From a virus, in the IMG/VR virus record IMGVR_UViG_3300037247_000655, positions 1 to 64,000 of that record: 64,000 nt of DNA. One strand, written 5' to 3'. The translations under genes were made by a program, and so were the position numbers. This document shows positions 54,722 to 63,053 of the stretch, one piece after another (the first letter of the stretch is position 1; every line of letters begins with the position of its first letter). The notes below the pieces were generated by a model. That model searched no databases and was not told the DNA's origin. It saw nothing but the letters and a program-made list of their open reading frames with translations.

Positions 54722-55363
54722 ATGCCAAAATTAGTCGATTTAATTGGGCAAAGATTTGGAAGATTGCTGGTAATAGAACCTCATTATAGTAGCAAATACA
54801 AAAGAGTTCTATGGCTATGTCAGTGTGAATGTGGGAAAGAAAAAATTGTTTTGGGTTATAATCTCAAAAGTGGCAATACACAAAGTTGCGGGTGTTTAGG
54901 TAAAGAAGGAAATCATGCAATACACGGTCACCATAGAAGAGGGAAAGCAACCAGAGAGTACAAATCATGGGCTTCCATGAAAGAACGATGCACTAATCCC
55001 AACCACAAATATTGGAAGAATTATGGTGGTCGTGGAATTACGGTTTGTAAGAAATGGATGGAATTCTCTAATTTCCTTATGGATATGGGAGAAAGACCTT
55101 CAGGATGTACGCTCGAACGGATAAAAAACGAAAAGGGATATTTTAAAAAGAATTGCTATTGGGCAACACGAAATCAACAACAGAGAAACACACGAAGGAA
55201 TCTCTATGTTTCATACGCAGGGGAACGATGGCTTTTTATAGAATTGTGTGAAAAATTTAATATGCCTCGTCAACTTGTGTATGGTAGATATTATGGGCTC
55301 TATTGGACTCTGGAAGAAGCCCTAATAACCACCGTTGGGGAAAAGAGAAAAAGAAATGATTGA
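54722..55363 (+). CDS. Phage HNH-type homing endonuclease
   Basis: GQRFGRL, WLCQCECG, SCGC, YGGRGITVC, TLERIKN..GY...NC.WAT. Confidence 0.85.
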   Translation: MPKLVDLIGQRFGRLLVIEPHYSSKYKRVLWLCQCECGKEKIVLGYNLKSGNTQSCGCLGKEGNHAIHGHHRRGKATREYKSWASMKERCTNPNHKYWKNYGGRGITVCKKWMEFSNFLMDMGERPSGCTLERIKNEKGYFKKNCYWATRNQQQRNTRRNLYVSYAGERWLFIELCEKFNMPRQLVYGRYYGLYWTLEEALITTVGEKRKRND

Positions 55364-57248
55364 TATCAAACGATTGGAAAAAGCGTCAGAAGCCTATTAT
55401 TCTGGTAATCCACTAATGACCGATGCAGAATTCGATATGGCCATTGCCGAATTACAGGAAAGTGATCCTGATAGTTATTTTCTTAAACGTATCGGAGCGC
55501 CCGTTCCTGGTGTGTCGAAAGCTAAGCATGCCATACAGATGGGGAGTCTGAATAACATACATGACGAAAAAGAATTTCGAACTTGGGTGCCTAGCGATGG
55601 ACCCTATATTTGTTTGTCTCATAAACTTGATGGTTCATCTTTGGAATTAGTTTACAAGGATGGTCACTTTATACAGGCAATAACACGTGGGGATGGTGAA
55701 GTCGGGGAAGACGTTACCAGAAATGTCCTAGCCTCGAAGAATGTCCCATTGTCTATCAATCCACTGATTGTATCTGTTCGATGCGAATGTTTGATACTTA
55801 AGGACGATTGGGAAAACCATTTCGAGGGAGACGCTAATCCTCGCAATTCTGCTGCAGGTACACTCCGTCGCCACGATGGTCGCAATGCTGAATATCTTAG
55901 GTTCTATGCTTTTGATGCAATAATAGATGAGGCAAAAAAAACCCCAGGGAATTCGCTCTTTACTGTGTCTGATATGGATACATTAGATATGCTGTCTCTA
56001 TGGTTCCTAACTCCATCTCGTAAATGGTCCAATGATCCATCGACTATGATAAGTTGGTATAAAAAAGAAGAAGAACGTAGAGACTGTCTATCGTATGAGA
56101 TTGATGGTATAGTGGCTAAAATTGATGATCGCCAGGCGTCTTTTAAAATGGGCATCGTAAATGGTCACCCTAAAGGACAAGTAGCTATAAAATTCAAACC
56201 CCGTGGTGGTGAGACCGTATTGAGAAGTGTAACGTGGCAAGTTGGTCATACGGGGGTTTTGTCTCCGGTAGGTATAGTTGATCCAGTTGGTGTTGGAGGG
56301 ACTACCATACGACGTGTTACATTATGCAATATGGATGAGATAGATCGTCTTGGTATAGCTATTGGGGATACTATAGAGATCATCAGAGCTTGTGATGTTA
56401 TCCCAAAGTTATCTAAAATGATAAAAAAAGGTTCTAATAGAAAACTTATTCATCCTCCCCTTTCTTGTCCTGCATGCTGCCTGGCAACAACAAGAGATGG
56501 TGCGCATATTCGATGTAGAAATCATGAATGTACCCTCAAATCTTATCATCGCGTAATGAATTGGGTTAAAAAACGCAACATCCTCAACGTAGGAATAAAA
56601 CTGATAATAGCAGCAAAAATAAAAACCATTTCTCAATTGTATAAAACTAGTATGGATGAATGGGAAGATGTAAGAATTAGTAATCGTATATTTGGTGAGA
56701 AGAGGGCAAAGAAGGTAATTGATGCTCTAGAAAAATCCAAAATTGTTTCATTGCCAGATTTCTTGGGGTCTCTTGGAATCAAGGGGGTCGGTAGATCTTT
56801 GGCGTCTGGTTTGTGCGAGCATTTTAGTGGTCTTCCAGATAGTCAATTAACACTTAAAGATATTTTTTGGCTTAAAGAGCAGGATGTTGCAGGACACGAG
56901 AAGTTTGGTAAGATCAGAGCATCTGATTTCTGTGATTGGTTACAACAACATAAGGTTGAGATTGAGGTATTAGCTGATATGATGGATATACAGTATGAAA
57001 CGAATGACGAGAAGGGTATTTTTGATGGAGAGGTAATTTGTTTTACTGGTAAGTCGCCAAAACCTCGCCCAGAAATGATCCGTTTAGCGGAAGCTGCTGG
57101 TGCATTAGTGTCTAACTCTGTTAATAGCAATACCACCATATTAGTAGTGGCTGATACGAACAAGAAGTCGTCTAAGTCTATTAGGGCGGGTCAATTTGGA
57201 ATCAGAATTATGTCAACCCAGGATTTCATGATTCAGGTAGATGGTTGA
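55356..57248 (+). CDS. ligA: NAD-dependent DNA ligase
   Basis: KLDG, TRGDG..GEDVT, NPRN, EIDG, Zn finger, HhH, C-terminal BRCT. Confidence 0.95.
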   Translation: MIDIKRLEKASEAYYSGNPLMTDAEFDMAIAELQESDPDSYFLKRIGAPVPGVSKAKHAIQMGSLNNIHDEKEFRTWVPSDGPYICLSHKLDGSSLELVYKDGHFIQAITRGDGEVGEDVTRNVLASKNVPLSINPLIVSVRCECLILKDDWENHFEGDANPRNSAAGTLRRHDGRNAEYLRFYAFDAIIDEAKKTPGNSLFTVSDMDTLDMLSLWFLTPSRKWSNDPSTMISWYKKEEERRDCLSYEIDGIVAKIDDRQASFKMGIVNGHPKGQVAIKFKPRGGETVLRSVTWQVGHTGVLSPVGIVDPVGVGGTTIRRVTLCNMDEIDRLGIAIGDTIEIIRACDVIPKLSKMIKKGSNRKLIHPPLSCPACCLATTRDGAHIRCRNHECTLKSYHRVMNWVKKRNILNVGIKLIIAAKIKTISQLYKTSMDEWEDVRISNRIFGEKRAKKVIDALEKSKIVSLPDFLGSLGIKGVGRSLASGLCEHFSGLPDSQLTLKDIFWLKEQDVAGHEKFGKIRASDFCDWLQQHKVEIEVLADMMDIQYETNDEKGIFDGEVICFTGKSPKPRPEMIRLAEAAGALVSNSVNSNTTILVVADTNKKSSKSIRAGQFGIRIMSTQDFMIQVDG

Positions 57249-57345: not shown

Positions 57346-57461
57346 GGTGTATAAGATAGATGGACGGAAGCCATGAGCAGGCGTCAAACAAGAGTTACGC
57401 CATCCTTGCGCGTCGTTCGCTACCTTAGTACTCGGGACCTGAAACACGGTCCCGCTTTTTT
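57346..57461 (+). ncRNA. Candidate small RNA between a class-2 promoter (57346) and a terminator
   Basis: GGTGTATAA, about 100 nt without a credible ORF, hairpin GGCGT..ACGCC, terminator CGGGACC-tgaaacac-GGTCCCG followed by a T run. Confidence 0.45.
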
Positions 57462-57499: not shown

Positions 57500-57558
57500 A
57501 GATAACGACATAGTGTCGTTCTCGGGGGTGAGCCCGGCGATCTGTGGGAGAAAAGCCA

Positions 57559-57714
57559 ATGGCAGATAAGATTGAGATGATTTCTATTCCTCAAAAGGAA
57601 TATGATCAGCTAGTAAGTGATCAAAGATGGTTGGCAGCTCTGGAGGCTGCTGGGATTGACAACTGGGATGGGTGCGACATAGCGCGTGAAGCCATGTCCG
57701 AGTATGGTAATTGA
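57559..57714 (+). CDS. Small phage protein (51 aa)
   Basis: MADKIEM...WLAALEAAGIDNWDG; RBS GGGAG. Confidence 0.65.
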   Translation: MADKIEMISIPQKEYDQLVSDQRWLAALEAAGIDNWDGCDIAREAMSEYGN

Positions 57715-57840
57715 AGTAGGAGAAAAAATATGTGGTATAATAAGCCGAAGCCAAAGCTACGGGGTGTAGCACTAATAGATTCTGTGGCCAATCGTTTCAA
57801 TGATATGGTCGATGAACTGGAAGTTGGTATGTAGATATAA

Positions 57841-58192
57841 GGGGCTGAAAGGTTTCGACAGGGTAAGTGAAGATTATGTGGCGTGCCGAGGTTGTCAGTG
57901 GGCCTCGTTAAACAACTGATAAAAAAGTCTTAAACGGCGAATCCAAGTTCAAATTGGCTGCGTAGCAGCCCGTCAACCAGAAGACGCCTACTATTCTGCA
58001 AGACGACGACCAGTTGGCTAGTGTTTGTTTGATACCTAACCGAATTAACGCGAAACAATAGTTGGGCATGGAAAAACAAAAGCCTGTCGATTGGCGTTTG
58101 TGGCTTCGAGATTTAAACAATCGAATATGCACGTAGAAGGCATGATTTAATCTATTCCTGGACCCGACTTTCGAAAGTCGGCAGCTCCACCA
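57841..58192 (+). ncRNA. ssrA: tmRNA, tag peptide (A)GESKFKLAA
   Basis: 5' GGGGCTGAAAGGTTTCGAC and 3' CAGCTCCACCA with the G3-U pair; tag ORF 57936..57965 ending LAA-stop. Confidence 0.93.
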
Positions 58193-58271
58193 GGGCAGTT
58201 AGTTCAATAGGTAGAACGCAACCCAGCAGGACCAAGGGTTGAGGTTGTAGGTTCGAATCCTTCACTGCCCA
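58193..58271 (+). tRNA. tRNA-like RNA with a 13-nt anticodon loop (no assignable anticodon)
   Basis: Acceptor GGGCAGT/ACTGCCC, D arm GTTC/GAAC, T loop TTCGAAT; stem CAACC/GGTTG closes the loop CAGCAGGACCAAG. Confidence 0.75.
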
Positions 58272-58288
58272 TTGTTTGGAGGTATATT

Positions 58289-58926
58289 GTGTTCAATCTC
58301 ATTGGTTTCCGGACAGATTATGAATATGGTTATGGTGGATATACTGGTGTAACTAATTCTGTCGAAAAAATAGTAGCTACTTTTGACTCAGAAAATGATG
58401 CGAGAGTATATATTAAAAAATCCAAACTGAAAAATGCCACCACATGGACCGAAAGACCATTCAGAAAAAATAGTCTTTTGTGTTATTTTCAGGACGCAGA
58501 GGTTAAAGAGGTGGTCAAAGATGATTCGCCTCCACACAACCCCACGCTTAGAGAGGGAAAGAGGAAGATATGAACTTAGAACAAGCAAAAGCAAAGTTGG
58601 ACACTATTAGCAAGTCTACAGCGATTCAACACCCTAAGGTCCTGGTTAGTGAACTATGCGTAGTGGTAAAGTTTTTGTTGGACGAAATAGAGAGGGTGAA
58701 GTCGCCTAATATGGTATCACTTTTGAAACAACCTCTTGATCCAAATCAACCAATACATACGCCACCGCCAAGTACTAATAAGCCGGATATTCCATTTATT
58801 CCCCACAAACATCCATGGCCAGATACGCCCAAAAGGACGGTTTGCCCCGATACACCGCCCACACGTCGCGAAGATCCAAGTGTGCCGCCCATACGTAGAA
58901 AGGGAAACGCAGGGGACGCTACGTAA
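58289..58926 (+). CDS. Two hypothetical proteins (58289..58573; Pro-rich 58570..58926)
   Basis: RBSs GGAGG and GAGGA; overlapping stop and start. Confidence 0.6.
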
Positions 58927-58950: not shown

Positions 58951-59916
58951 ATGATGGAAGTTTCTGAACATACATGTGATGTCGTTGAAATTAAGCTACG
59001 AATCCACTCAAACGCAGATGCGTTGAGCCTGGTTCATGTGGGTGATTTTCAGTGTGCCGTAAGAACTGCTGATTGGAAAGATGGCGATCTTGCTATCTAT
59101 ATTCCACCAGACAGTATTGTGCCAGACACAAAAGAGTTTGAATTCTTGGGCGAACACAAAAGGATTAAAGCTAGGAAATTGCGTGGTGAGTGGTCTGTCG
59201 GATTGTTAATACCTGCACCGTCCGATGCCAAGATTGGTGACGATTACATGGAAAAGTTGGGGATCACGCATTATGAACCACAAATCCATGGACATTTTAG
59301 TACAGGTGGAGACAATGTTACACCCCCAGAGGGATTTTTCCCTAAATATGACGTATTGAACTTCCGTAGATATTCCGAGTTTTTCGAGGAGGGTGAAGAA
59401 GTAATTGTTACCGAAAAATTACACGGAGCTAATGCTCGCTTTGTTTGTATAGACGATCTTATATATTGTGGATCTCGTAACCATTGGAAAAAAGAAGATC
59501 CCAACAATCTATGGTGGAAAGCACTGAAGAACTGCCAAGTGTTAGATGCGTGGCTTAGGCATCATCAGAATCTAATAGTATACGGAGAGGTGTTCGGTCA
59601 AGTCCAGAACTTGAAATATGGAGCTTTGCCTGGAGAGGTTAAGTTTGCAGCTTTCGATATTCTCAGGGGTGATAAGTGGCTAGATTTTGATGAAGCTCAT
59701 GAGGTTGGTGCTCCATTGCCATGGGTTCCACTTGTCTATCGTGGTTCGTTTGACAAAGAGCAAATTCTGACATTAGCCGAAGGAGACTCTAGTTACCCAG
59801 GTGCGCAGCATCATCGCGAAGGTGTCGTAGTTAAACCAATACACGAACGTACGGAAAGAAAAATAGGAAGGCTGCAACTTAAAATAGTTGGAAATAGGTA
59901 TTTGTCAAAATCATGA
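58951..59916 (+). CDS. RNA ligase, DRB0094 (Rnl5-like) family
   Basis: N-terminal HSNADAL OB-like domain; TEKLHG, YGEVFG, FDI, REGVVVK, LKIV..RYL. Confidence 0.9.
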   Translation: MMEVSEHTCDVVEIKLRIHSNADALSLVHVGDFQCAVRTADWKDGDLAIYIPPDSIVPDTKEFEFLGEHKRIKARKLRGEWSVGLLIPAPSDAKIGDDYMEKLGITHYEPQIHGHFSTGGDNVTPPEGFFPKYDVLNFRRYSEFFEEGEEVIVTEKLHGANARFVCIDDLIYCGSRNHWKKEDPNNLWWKALKNCQVLDAWLRHHQNLIVYGEVFGQVQNLKYGALPGEVKFAAFDILRGDKWLDFDEAHEVGAPLPWVPLVYRGSFDKEQILTLAEGDSSYPGAQHHREGVVVKPIHERTERKIGRLQLKIVGNRYLSKS

Positions 59917-60300: not shown

Positions 60301-60452
60301 GGCGACGGTTTTTGTGTTTATTTTGTTGGGGCAGCACACGACAGGTAGTCGGCTGAGGCGGGGTGTCCCTAAAACCGCCAAGTCCAGATATTATGGACCT
60401 ATGGACTAAAGTCACAGACAGGGGGCCGCTGGTCGAATCCAGCCCGTCGCTA
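60301..60452 (+). ncRNA. 152-nt RNA with tRNA-like acceptor and T arms and a multi-hairpin interior
   Basis: GGCGACGG/CCGTCGCT plus A; GCTGG-TCGAAT-CCAGC; internal stems GGCGG/CCGCC and GTCCA/TGGAC. Confidence 0.6.
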
Positions 60453-62900: not shown

Positions 62901-62976
62901 CGGAATGTAGCTCAGTCTGGTCCAGAGCACTGCGTTTGGGGCGCAGAAGTCGAGAGTTCGAATCTCTCCATTCCGA
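62901..62976 (+). tRNA. tRNA-Pro (TGG)
   Basis: Canonical cloverleaf; loop TTTGGGG. Confidence 0.93.
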
Positions 62977-62980
62977 ATCT

Positions 62981-63053
62981 TGCGGGATAGCTCAATTGGT
63001 AGAGCTGGCGGCTGTTAACCGCTGTGTTGCAGGTTCAAGTCCTGCTCCCGCAG
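62981..63053 (+). tRNA. tRNA-Asn (GTT)
   Basis: Canonical cloverleaf; loop CTGTTAA. Confidence 0.93.

Follow-up and report, generated by a model that had tools for sequence, protein, structure and literature searches.

An uncultured marine-sediment phage carries a tmRNA gene whose encoded CCA end is directly followed by a gene with the body of a tRNA and an anticodon loop that appears unfit for decoding. With a little better than even confidence, we read this arrangement as a functional tmRNA joined to a disabled tRNA gene that would serve as dispensable RNase P punctuation, its loop being a scar of repair. The phage is represented by one complete IMG/VR record with direct terminal repeats (IMGVR_UViG_3300037247_000655, 165,526 bp; hereafter G000), and the window analysed here is the first 64 kb of that record (positions 1–64,000). 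Features of the locus and of comparable loci are collected in Table 1.

We propose that the tmRNA would be transcribed within a same-strand array of small genes and would act as a functional, phage-borne ribosome-rescue RNA of the alanine type (G3:U70), with the tag AGESKFKLAA and in dependence on host SmpB. In one phage lineage, a tRNA gene would have been placed exactly at the CCA end and its anticodon loop swapped for a 13-nt U-less sequence, the L-shaped body staying complete; the new loop would be a patch copied from the opposite strand of an open reading frame (ORF) at 81304–81912. Host RNase P would cut between 58192 and 58193, giving the tmRNA its mature CCA-3′OH in one step, and 3′ trimming at about 58271 would free the orf94–orf118–RNA ligase message with a 17-nt leader. 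The cloverleaf would then be RNase P/RNase Z punctuation between the tmRNA and the next message, as at tRNA–tRNA and tmRNA–tRNA junctions in other phages, and the scarred tRNA may have been kept or merely tolerated.

Table 1. Features of the tmRNA locus in G000 and tmRNA–tRNA junctions in other phage contigs
Feature	Position or contig	Strand	Details
HNH endonuclease	54722–55363	+	
NAD-dependent DNA ligase (LigA)	55335–57248	+	
Terminator-like hairpin and T run	57433–57454	+	7-bp stem, 6 GC pairs, tail CTTTTTTATT
Small ORF, T7 gp5.9-like RecBCD inhibitor	57544–57714	+	Pfam PF25708, E = 7.5e-17
34-codon ORF	57730–57834	+	TAG stop 6 nt before tmRNA base 1; read from sequence
One-piece tmRNA, CCA encoded	57841–58192	+	RF00023, 124 bits
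Tag reading frame, GGC..GCG TAG	57936–57965	+	(A)GESKFKLAA, then stop
tmRNA T arm	58164–58181	+	5-bp stem CCGAC/GUCGG and 8-nt loop UUUCGAAA (58169–58176)
tRNA-shaped gene, predicted non-decoding, no encoded CCA	58193–58271	+	RF00005, 58 bits
16-nt stretch AACCCAGCAGGACCAA (4 stem and 12 of 13 loop bases)	58220–58235	+	exact reverse complement of G000 81374–81389
Anticodon loop, 13 nt, U-less, CAGCAGGACCAAG	58224–58236	+	stem CAACC/GGUUG at 58219–58223/58237–58241
GGAGG ribosome-binding site of orf94	58278–58282	+	6 nt past the 3′ end of the tRNA-shaped gene
orf94, no family	58289–58573	+	anchor gene for finding relatives
orf118, no family	58570–58926	+	
RNA ligase	58951–59916	+	PF09414 and PHA02142 OB fold
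tmRNA and tRNA-Pro, 1 nt apart	L028, L088		Rfam-confirmed
tmRNA and tRNA-Val, 1 nt apart	L111		Rfam-confirmed
tmRNA and tRNA-Ile, 1 nt apart	L115		Rfam-confirmed
tmRNA and tRNA-Thr, 2 nt apart	L104		Rfam-confirmed
Permuted cyanophage-type tmRNA and tRNA-Asn, 1 nt after CCA	L080		Rfam-confirmed
tmRNA and tRNA-Lys(UUU), 1 nt after CCA	L087:7420–7985	−	anticodon loop split by a ~470-nt ORF-bearing insert

A phage tmRNA family with an 8-nt T loop

The tmRNA gene matches RF00023 from end to end (model positions 1–374), and its score stands against a gathering score of 47. The acceptor stem, GGGGCUG/CAGCUCC, includes G3:U70, and ACCA is encoded at 58189–58192. In this full-length match, the G3:U70 pair, the encoded CCA, the pseudoknots and a tag ending in AA, the gene resembles a bacterial one-piece tmRNA. 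Unlike its bacterial counterparts, it is borne by a phage, has an 8-nt T loop and lacks a partner SmpB in the same genome: the complete G000 record contains no PF01668 match, and the phage tmRNA presumably uses the SmpB of the host.

The tmRNA belongs to a family of five phage sequences, 75–89% identical, which we compared in a five-sequence alignment (A3). Besides G000, the members are L133, reached through homologues of orf94, and L153, L154 and L155, reached through an 18-nt pseudoknot word in IMG/VR. Identity to the G000 tmRNA is 88.7% for L133 and 75–79% for the other three. All five homologues have G3:U70 (A3 columns 4/349), and all keep the frame and length of a nine-codon tag of the form GExxF[KR][ML]AA, which reads GEPQFRMAA, GESQFRMAA, GEARFRMAA and GESRFKMAA in the four relatives. 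Compensatory changes that alter both sides were found in 13 of the 89 predicted pairs, three of these lying in the T stem. Given the 124-bit match and the G3:U70 pair, tag frame and 13 compensatory pairs kept across five homologues, we conclude from these comparisons that the tmRNA is real and under constraint.

The T arm departs from the canonical form with its 7-nt loop. The T loop is 8 nt long in all five sequences (UUUCGAAA in G000, UUUCGAAU in L153 and UCUCGGAU in the other three), and its positions 2 and 6 covary, being U:A in two sequences and C:G in three (A3 columns 332–339, corresponding to 58169–58176 in the window). The initial annotation had described this arm as a perfect hairpin. 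The oddity is real, and the G000 arm can alternatively be drawn with 7 bp and a 4-nt loop. However, that hairpin is peculiar to G000: UCUCGGAU forms neither of the extra pairs, UUUCGAAU forms only the 2:7 pair, and both occur together in G000 alone, so that the family trait is the 8-nt loop. This loop is consistent with a T-loop motif of normal form that has one additional U in front, and that U before the TΨC-type motif explains why ARAGORN misses the G000 tmRNA. With default settings, ARAGORN called neither the tmRNA nor the tRNA-shaped gene; among the relatives, it likewise failed for L154 and L155 and found L153. In view of the other features, we regard the 8-nt loop as a variant that, on sequence grounds, gives no reason to exclude the gene from the tmRNAs.

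A DNA search of GenBank phages with positions 57700–58400 gave no match, and a tmRNA pseudoknot-1 pattern had 0 matches in genome contigs. In the marine run X2, we found only fragments of other tmRNAs, at 80–95% identity. In a sixth relative, L007 (2158–2835), the tmRNA breaks off after its initial ~85 nt (86% identical), and unrelated sequence and a phosphoribosyltransferase gene (PF00156) come next; the tmRNA of L155 is complete, and a phosphoribosyltransferase gene similar to that of L007 lies behind it.

The tmRNA lies in a same-strand gene array

All genes around the locus lie on the plus strand. The terminator-like hairpin probably ends the upstream LigA unit, with the tmRNA-bearing transcript starting anew 3′ of it. 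The gp5.9-like gene is syntenic in relatives, and the same family is called 5′ of the tmRNA in L133. The stop codon of the 34-codon ORF is so close to the tmRNA that the latter falls inside the same-strand gene array; an ORF also ends 7 nt 5′ of the L133 tmRNA. On the other side, we found no credible promoter between the tRNA-shaped gene and orf94, whose ribosome-binding site and start lie within 17 nt, which argues that the array is read through.

Further tRNAs follow the RNA ligase gene in the array. G000 has 13 regular tRNAs, none of which encodes CCA. Some regular tRNAs of the array are spaced by only 3–4 nt (ATCT, TTGT and GTCG, none of them CCA), at 62976–62981 in the window and at G000 64131–64136 and 64208–64213, the last two just past the window end. 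With such spacers, these array tRNAs would all need CCA addition after processing.

A tRNA body at zero distance from the tmRNA end

The CCA end of the tmRNA at 58192 directly touches the first base of the tRNA-shaped gene at 58193, leaving a spacer of 0 nt. This junction had been placed at the same bases, again with no spacer, by the initial annotation, and the matches to RF00023 and RF00005 confirm both the coordinates and the sequence. The CCA encoded at the junction belongs to the tmRNA alone, the tRNA-shaped gene being without CCA like the 13 regular tRNAs. In the literature, we found no description of a zero-spacer tmRNA–tRNA junction or of a tRNA-like RNA at 58193–58271.

The RF00005 score of 58 bits (gathering score 29) lies inside the range of the 13 regular tRNAs, 52.7–76.9 bits. 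In the body, the acceptor stem has 7 bp, the D stem has 4 bp and carries the loop AAUAGGUA, and the T arm contains UUCGAAU. Read from the sequence, the tertiary signature bases are all there: U8, A14, A15:U48, G18G19, G26:A44, G46, U54U55C56, A58 and G53:C61. The good acceptor, D and T arms of the initial annotation are thereby borne out, with U50:U64 as the single mismatch in the gene. An optional sixth C:G pair would give a 6-bp anticodon stem and an 11-nt loop, and the energy of the cloverleaf in this form equals the unconstrained minimum (−28.3 kcal/mol).

The anticodon loop sets the gene apart from the regular tRNAs. It departs from the 7-nt form in which U33 and a position-37 purine are present, and the Rfam alignment gives 12 inserted positions against 6 in the model. 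No 7-nt reading of the loop contains U33, so we did not file the gene as a tRNA, and we predict that it cannot decode. No Rfam family besides tRNA matches it. The gene also lacks G3:U70, a long variable arm and G-1, and established identity rules would therefore make its acceptance by the anticodon-independent synthetases for Ala, Ser and His unlikely. We infer that the RNA is not aminoacylated. Its ancestral isotype is ambiguous. The acceptor shares 13 of 14 bases with tRNA-Val(UAC) of the relative G003, yet ARAGORN forces a Trp call that rests on a CCA inside the loop, and in an alignment to 365 phage tRNAs and the tRNAs of relatives, the likeness to Trp was out of structural register. A D-arm/T-loop pattern had one uninformative match in genome contigs, to an insect endosymbiont, and these pattern searches found no host or donor.

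For RNase P, the recognized part of a tRNA is its acceptor/T-arm half, and the cut falls at base +1. With zero spacing, a cut at 58192/58193 would leave a mature CCA on the tmRNA, and such cleavage is the biochemical outcome to be expected from the sequence. The 5′ end of tmRNA is also made by RNase P (PMC3985003). No RNA run was found to contain the locus.

Relatives carry the tmRNA without the tRNA-shaped gene

The tRNA-shaped gene is absent after the homologous tmRNA in L133, L134, L153, L154 and L155. The next gene there is an HNH homing endonuclease in L133/L134 and L154, a phosphoribosyltransferase in L155 and a small ORF in L153. Whichever gene comes next, four relatives carry AA(A)GRAA right after the CCA (AAGGAAGCC, AAAGGAACC, AAAGAAATC and AAAGAAATC). 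As this sequence is common to the relatives and the cloverleaf is confined to G000, parsimony makes the tRNA-shaped gene a derived insertion in the G000 lineage, found in one genome. The interval from CCA to orf94 is 96 nt in G000 versus 529 nt, containing the HNH cassette, in L133. The HNH/His-Me homing endonuclease gene (L133:1648–2168; L154:2393 onward) starts 14 nt past the tmRNA CCA, with its ribosome-binding site 1–2 nt past the CCA, at the site that the tRNA-shaped gene occupies in G000.

These relatives have the same tmRNA without the cloverleaf, which makes the cloverleaf dispensable; their tmRNAs are predicted to mature without it. The initial annotation had taken the mimic to be a processing handle for the tmRNA 3′ end and had itself named a tmRNA maturing without it as a refutation. 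The tmRNAs of L133, L153, L154 and L155, 75–89% identical and free of any mimic, speak against a dedicated handle that the tmRNA needs. Its suggestion to check relatives for a conserved junction with a variable loop led elsewhere: the junction gene is absent and a different sequence is shared after the CCA. The broader idea of the mimic as a processing handle survives in part. A sound cloverleaf is placed for a one-cut CCA-3′OH, and at least seven other phage contigs have a tRNA 1–2 nt behind a tmRNA CCA (below), but a dedicated or needed role is not supported.

No full tmRNA was found at the locus in the RNA-ligase relatives G001/L003 and L007–L013, L007 having only its 5′ remnant, and G001/L003, L010, L011, L012 and L135 have neither tmRNA nor cloverleaf there. 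No closer relative was present in a collection of 5.8 billion proteins, in which the best orf94 match was 63% identical. In IMG/VR, with the G000 record itself excluded, exact and degenerate patterns for the junction, the 5′ half of the tRNA-shaped gene and the tmRNA 3′ end gave 0 matches.

The absence from relatives bears on whether the gene has any role at all. A broken tRNA gene might have been inserted recently and never selected, its zero spacing being an accident of recombination. The presence of the gene in one genome is consistent with such an inert pseudogene, as are the broken anticodon loop and the U50:U64 mismatch, and the locus is a hotspot that holds an HNH gene, a phosphoribosyltransferase gene or a truncated tmRNA in relatives. 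Against the punctuation reading, a neutral recent insertion would look the same in the single genome available. However, the exact abutment preserves the tmRNA CCA, all tertiary bases are kept with a score like that of working tRNAs, and RNase P would cut even an unselected cloverleaf, which makes biochemical inertness unlikely. On balance, we consider an inert pseudogene doubtful. Selection for a trans-acting role, which lies outside the punctuation reading, could also account for the intact body, with its single U:U mismatch, and for the exact zero spacing.

The anticodon loop matches part of another phage gene

The 16-nt stretch AACCCAGCAGGACCAA recurs once more in the G000 genome, as its exact reverse complement at 81374–81389, past the window end and inside the ORF at 81304–81912. 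This ORF has 202 codons and belongs to no known family; the 16-nt site lies at +71 to +86 and encodes FGPAGF. The motif is kept in the G001 homologue of the ORF, which indicates that the gene copy of the 16-mer is older than the copy in the tRNA loop. The 16-mer itself is absent from G001–G004. The extent of the match coincides exactly with the abnormal part of the tRNA-shaped gene. Among random windows of G000, a 16-mer repeated elsewhere in the genome occurs in 0.25% of those of 21 nt and in 2% of those of 79 nt, and a chance match is therefore unlikely, with the caveat that the match was found post hoc. The loop was no more complementary to the tmRNA, or to the 2 kb that follow, than shuffled loops were. 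A GTGTATAA motif lies 5′ of the ORF, at G000 81280–81303, and the ORF is also preceded by an AAAGGAA ribosome-binding site.

We favour the explanation that the loop was copied as a short patch from the ORF, AACC serving as microhomology. The repair of a break could be one occasion for such copying, the site being one at which relatives have a homing endonuclease.

The same identity admits a regulatory explanation, in which the tRNA scaffold presents an antisense RNA: the loop would pair with the mRNA of the ORF at +71 to +86 and block or cut the message, and the adjoining tmRNA could clear stalled ribosomes. A perfect 16-nt complement that is unique in the genome, limited to the abnormal loop region and has 12 of its 16 nt in the loop would suit this role, as would the low empirical chance of the match (0.25–2%), a loop left unpaired in both low-energy folds and a target gene with the upstream motif and ribosome-binding site described above. 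However, the site is 70 nt inside the coding region rather than at the ribosome-binding site, a paralogue of the ORF is not matched, and the other odd tRNA-shaped genes of G000 and G001 have no matches of at least 13 nt elsewhere. None of the relatives has the regulator, G001–G004 lack the 16-mer, and a patch at the DNA level explains a match found post hoc equally well. We therefore judge antisense action unlikely. Its fuller form, in which the loop is a selected seed released by RNase P that silences or cuts the message while the co-transcribed tmRNA rescues the stranded ribosomes, is a shade less probable still.

Other odd tRNA-shaped genes and the remaining alternatives

G000 contains further odd tRNA-like elements. 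At 164904–164998 on the minus strand, past the window, a 95-nt match to the tRNA model (34 bits) combines D and T arms of normal form with an acceptor of 8 bp, and a long branched region stands where the anticodon and variable arms would be. Other elements lie at 60301–60452 in the window, packed against tRNA-Met, and at G000 66071–66157, between tRNA-Gly and tRNA-Phe; ARAGORN calls the latter tRNA-Ser(cga), and it holds two T-loop hairpins. No loop motif is shared between the tRNA-shaped gene at the tmRNA junction and the other odd tRNA-like genes of G000. Among relatives, tRNA-shaped genes with abnormal anticodon arms occur in G001 (162976–163056, minus strand, the same as L006:177–257), in G002 (as L157:1775–1856, minus strand) and in L007 (6177–6263). 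These genes include one with a 13–14-nt loop, one in which a CCCC-UUU-GGGG hairpin takes the place of the loop and one 87-nt low-scoring form, and their sequences are dissimilar.

This diversity in relatives, together with a phage context of an RNA ligase 680 nt downstream, a tmRNA and 13 tRNAs, would be in keeping with a released, uncharged cloverleaf that soaks up a tRNA-directed defence nuclease or an uncharged-tRNA sensor of the host, as the initial annotation had also suggested. However, characterized anticodon nucleases read the anticodon loop, which would be unrecognizable to them here, and no relative has a homologue of the gene. A decoy or sponge role seems to us quite improbable.

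Decoding might in principle be restored at the RNA level, through removal of a 6-nt mini-intron or some other repair, perhaps by the neighbouring RNA ligase. With introns allowed, ARAGORN forces a tRNA-Trp(cca) plus a 6-nt intron, and the phage has no other tRNA-Trp. However, the spliced loop would carry A33 instead of U33 and no 6-nt excision leaves a U, in agreement with the statement of the initial annotation that no trimming of this U-less 13-nt loop restores U33. Features of bulge–helix–bulge or group I splicing are missing, Rfam finds nothing, and we know of no such 6-nt splicing in bacteria or phages. We regard this route as highly improbable. An assembly or sequencing artefact in the loop is the least probable of all: although G000 is a single metagenomic record, a Logan assembly of a marine-sediment run, made by a second assembler, reproduces 57500–58700 with 0 differences in an 83,444-bp contig at a depth of about 25; this rules out an error of the assembler, though one at read level could persist, as the run may come from the same sample.

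Similar junctions in other phages and known systems

We scanned for CTCCACCA followed by the 5′ part of a tRNA and screened the hits with ARAGORN and Rfam. An ordinary tRNA follows the tmRNA CCA by 1–2 nt in at least seven other phage contigs (Table 1). In L087, the 3′ half of the tRNA-Lys resumes with TCAAA, a T arm and CGGAGCC-ACCA; this is probably an intron-bearing tRNA, judged from its sequence, although none of the Rfam intron families gave a match. Several tRNA-Ala(CCA)–tRNA junctions at 0–2 nt also turned up in the scan. An unrelated 133-kb phage contig (L085:2690–2796) carries a minihelix, GGAGUG-GCAA-CACUCC-ACCA, followed with zero spacer by tRNA-Val(GAC). When 38 full tmRNA genes were sampled from viral contigs without selection, only one had a tRNA no more than 5 nt away; many of the 38 probably belong to hosts and lie at prophage borders. 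A tmRNA 3′ end made by RNase P would thus be a minority but repeated layout, the cleavage itself being predicted from gene order.

In L028, L087, L088, L104, L111, L115 and the permuted L080, as in G000, an RNase P cut at the tRNA would make, or nearly make, the tmRNA 3′ end. Their tRNAs, in contrast to that of G000, are decoding (Pro, Val, Ile, Thr, Asn and the intron-bearing Lys), their tmRNAs are unrelated and their spacers are 1–2 nt instead of 0. The tRNA cluster of phage T4 is likewise a same-strand array with 1–2-nt spacers in which an encoded CCA is followed by the next RNase P substrate, as in tRNA-Thr(CCA)–1 nt–tRNA-Ile and tRNA-Arg(CCA)–1 nt–rnaD. It ends in non-decoding stable RNAs (rnaC/rnaD) with a T-arm-like hairpin and has the homing endonuclease gene segB inside. 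G000 differs from T4 in having a tmRNA as the upstream partner, zero spacing and, downstream, a full cloverleaf with an enlarged loop that is not of the rnaC/rnaD type.

Beyond phages, mammalian MALAT1–mascRNA and MEN-beta have a non-decoding tRNA-like element 3′ of a functional RNA, and an RNase P cut at the 5′ end of the element makes the upstream 3′ end. Polycistronic transcripts of mitochondria are cut by RNase P/RNase Z at intergenic tRNA or tRNA-like folds, as in mitochondrial tRNA punctuation and the t-elements of plant mitochondria. G000 shares with these systems a fold that abuts the 3′ end of the upstream RNA; conservation of the fold with that RNA is lacking, given its absence from L133, L134, L153, L154 and L155. 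Whereas the mascRNA-type elements are eukaryotic, nuclear, conserved and required, the G000 element is lineage-specific and dispensable. Mitochondrial punctuation is organellar, and t-elements are usually partial cloverleaves.

Discussion

We class the cloverleaf as a variation on known tRNA-type punctuation rather than as a system of a new kind. Its absence from sister phages leads us not to uphold the claim that it is a dedicated and necessary processing mimic, or a decoy.

To our knowledge, few studies have dealt with phage tmRNAs. The comparison made here establishes a phage tmRNA family of five members, with an unusual 8-nt T loop, that escapes a standard finder. Several unrelated phages have a tRNA 0–2 nt behind the tmRNA CCA, which would offer a simple RNase P route to the tmRNA 3′ end. 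A tRNA gene, it appears, can lose decoding and yet be kept at a tmRNA junction. The 16-nt copy of a phage gene in its loop may be a trace of templated repair of a kind seldom visible in phage genomes, or may belong to an antisense RNA on a tRNA scaffold; the latter, if true, would be a naturally occurring regulatory RNA of this design with a link to trans-translation.
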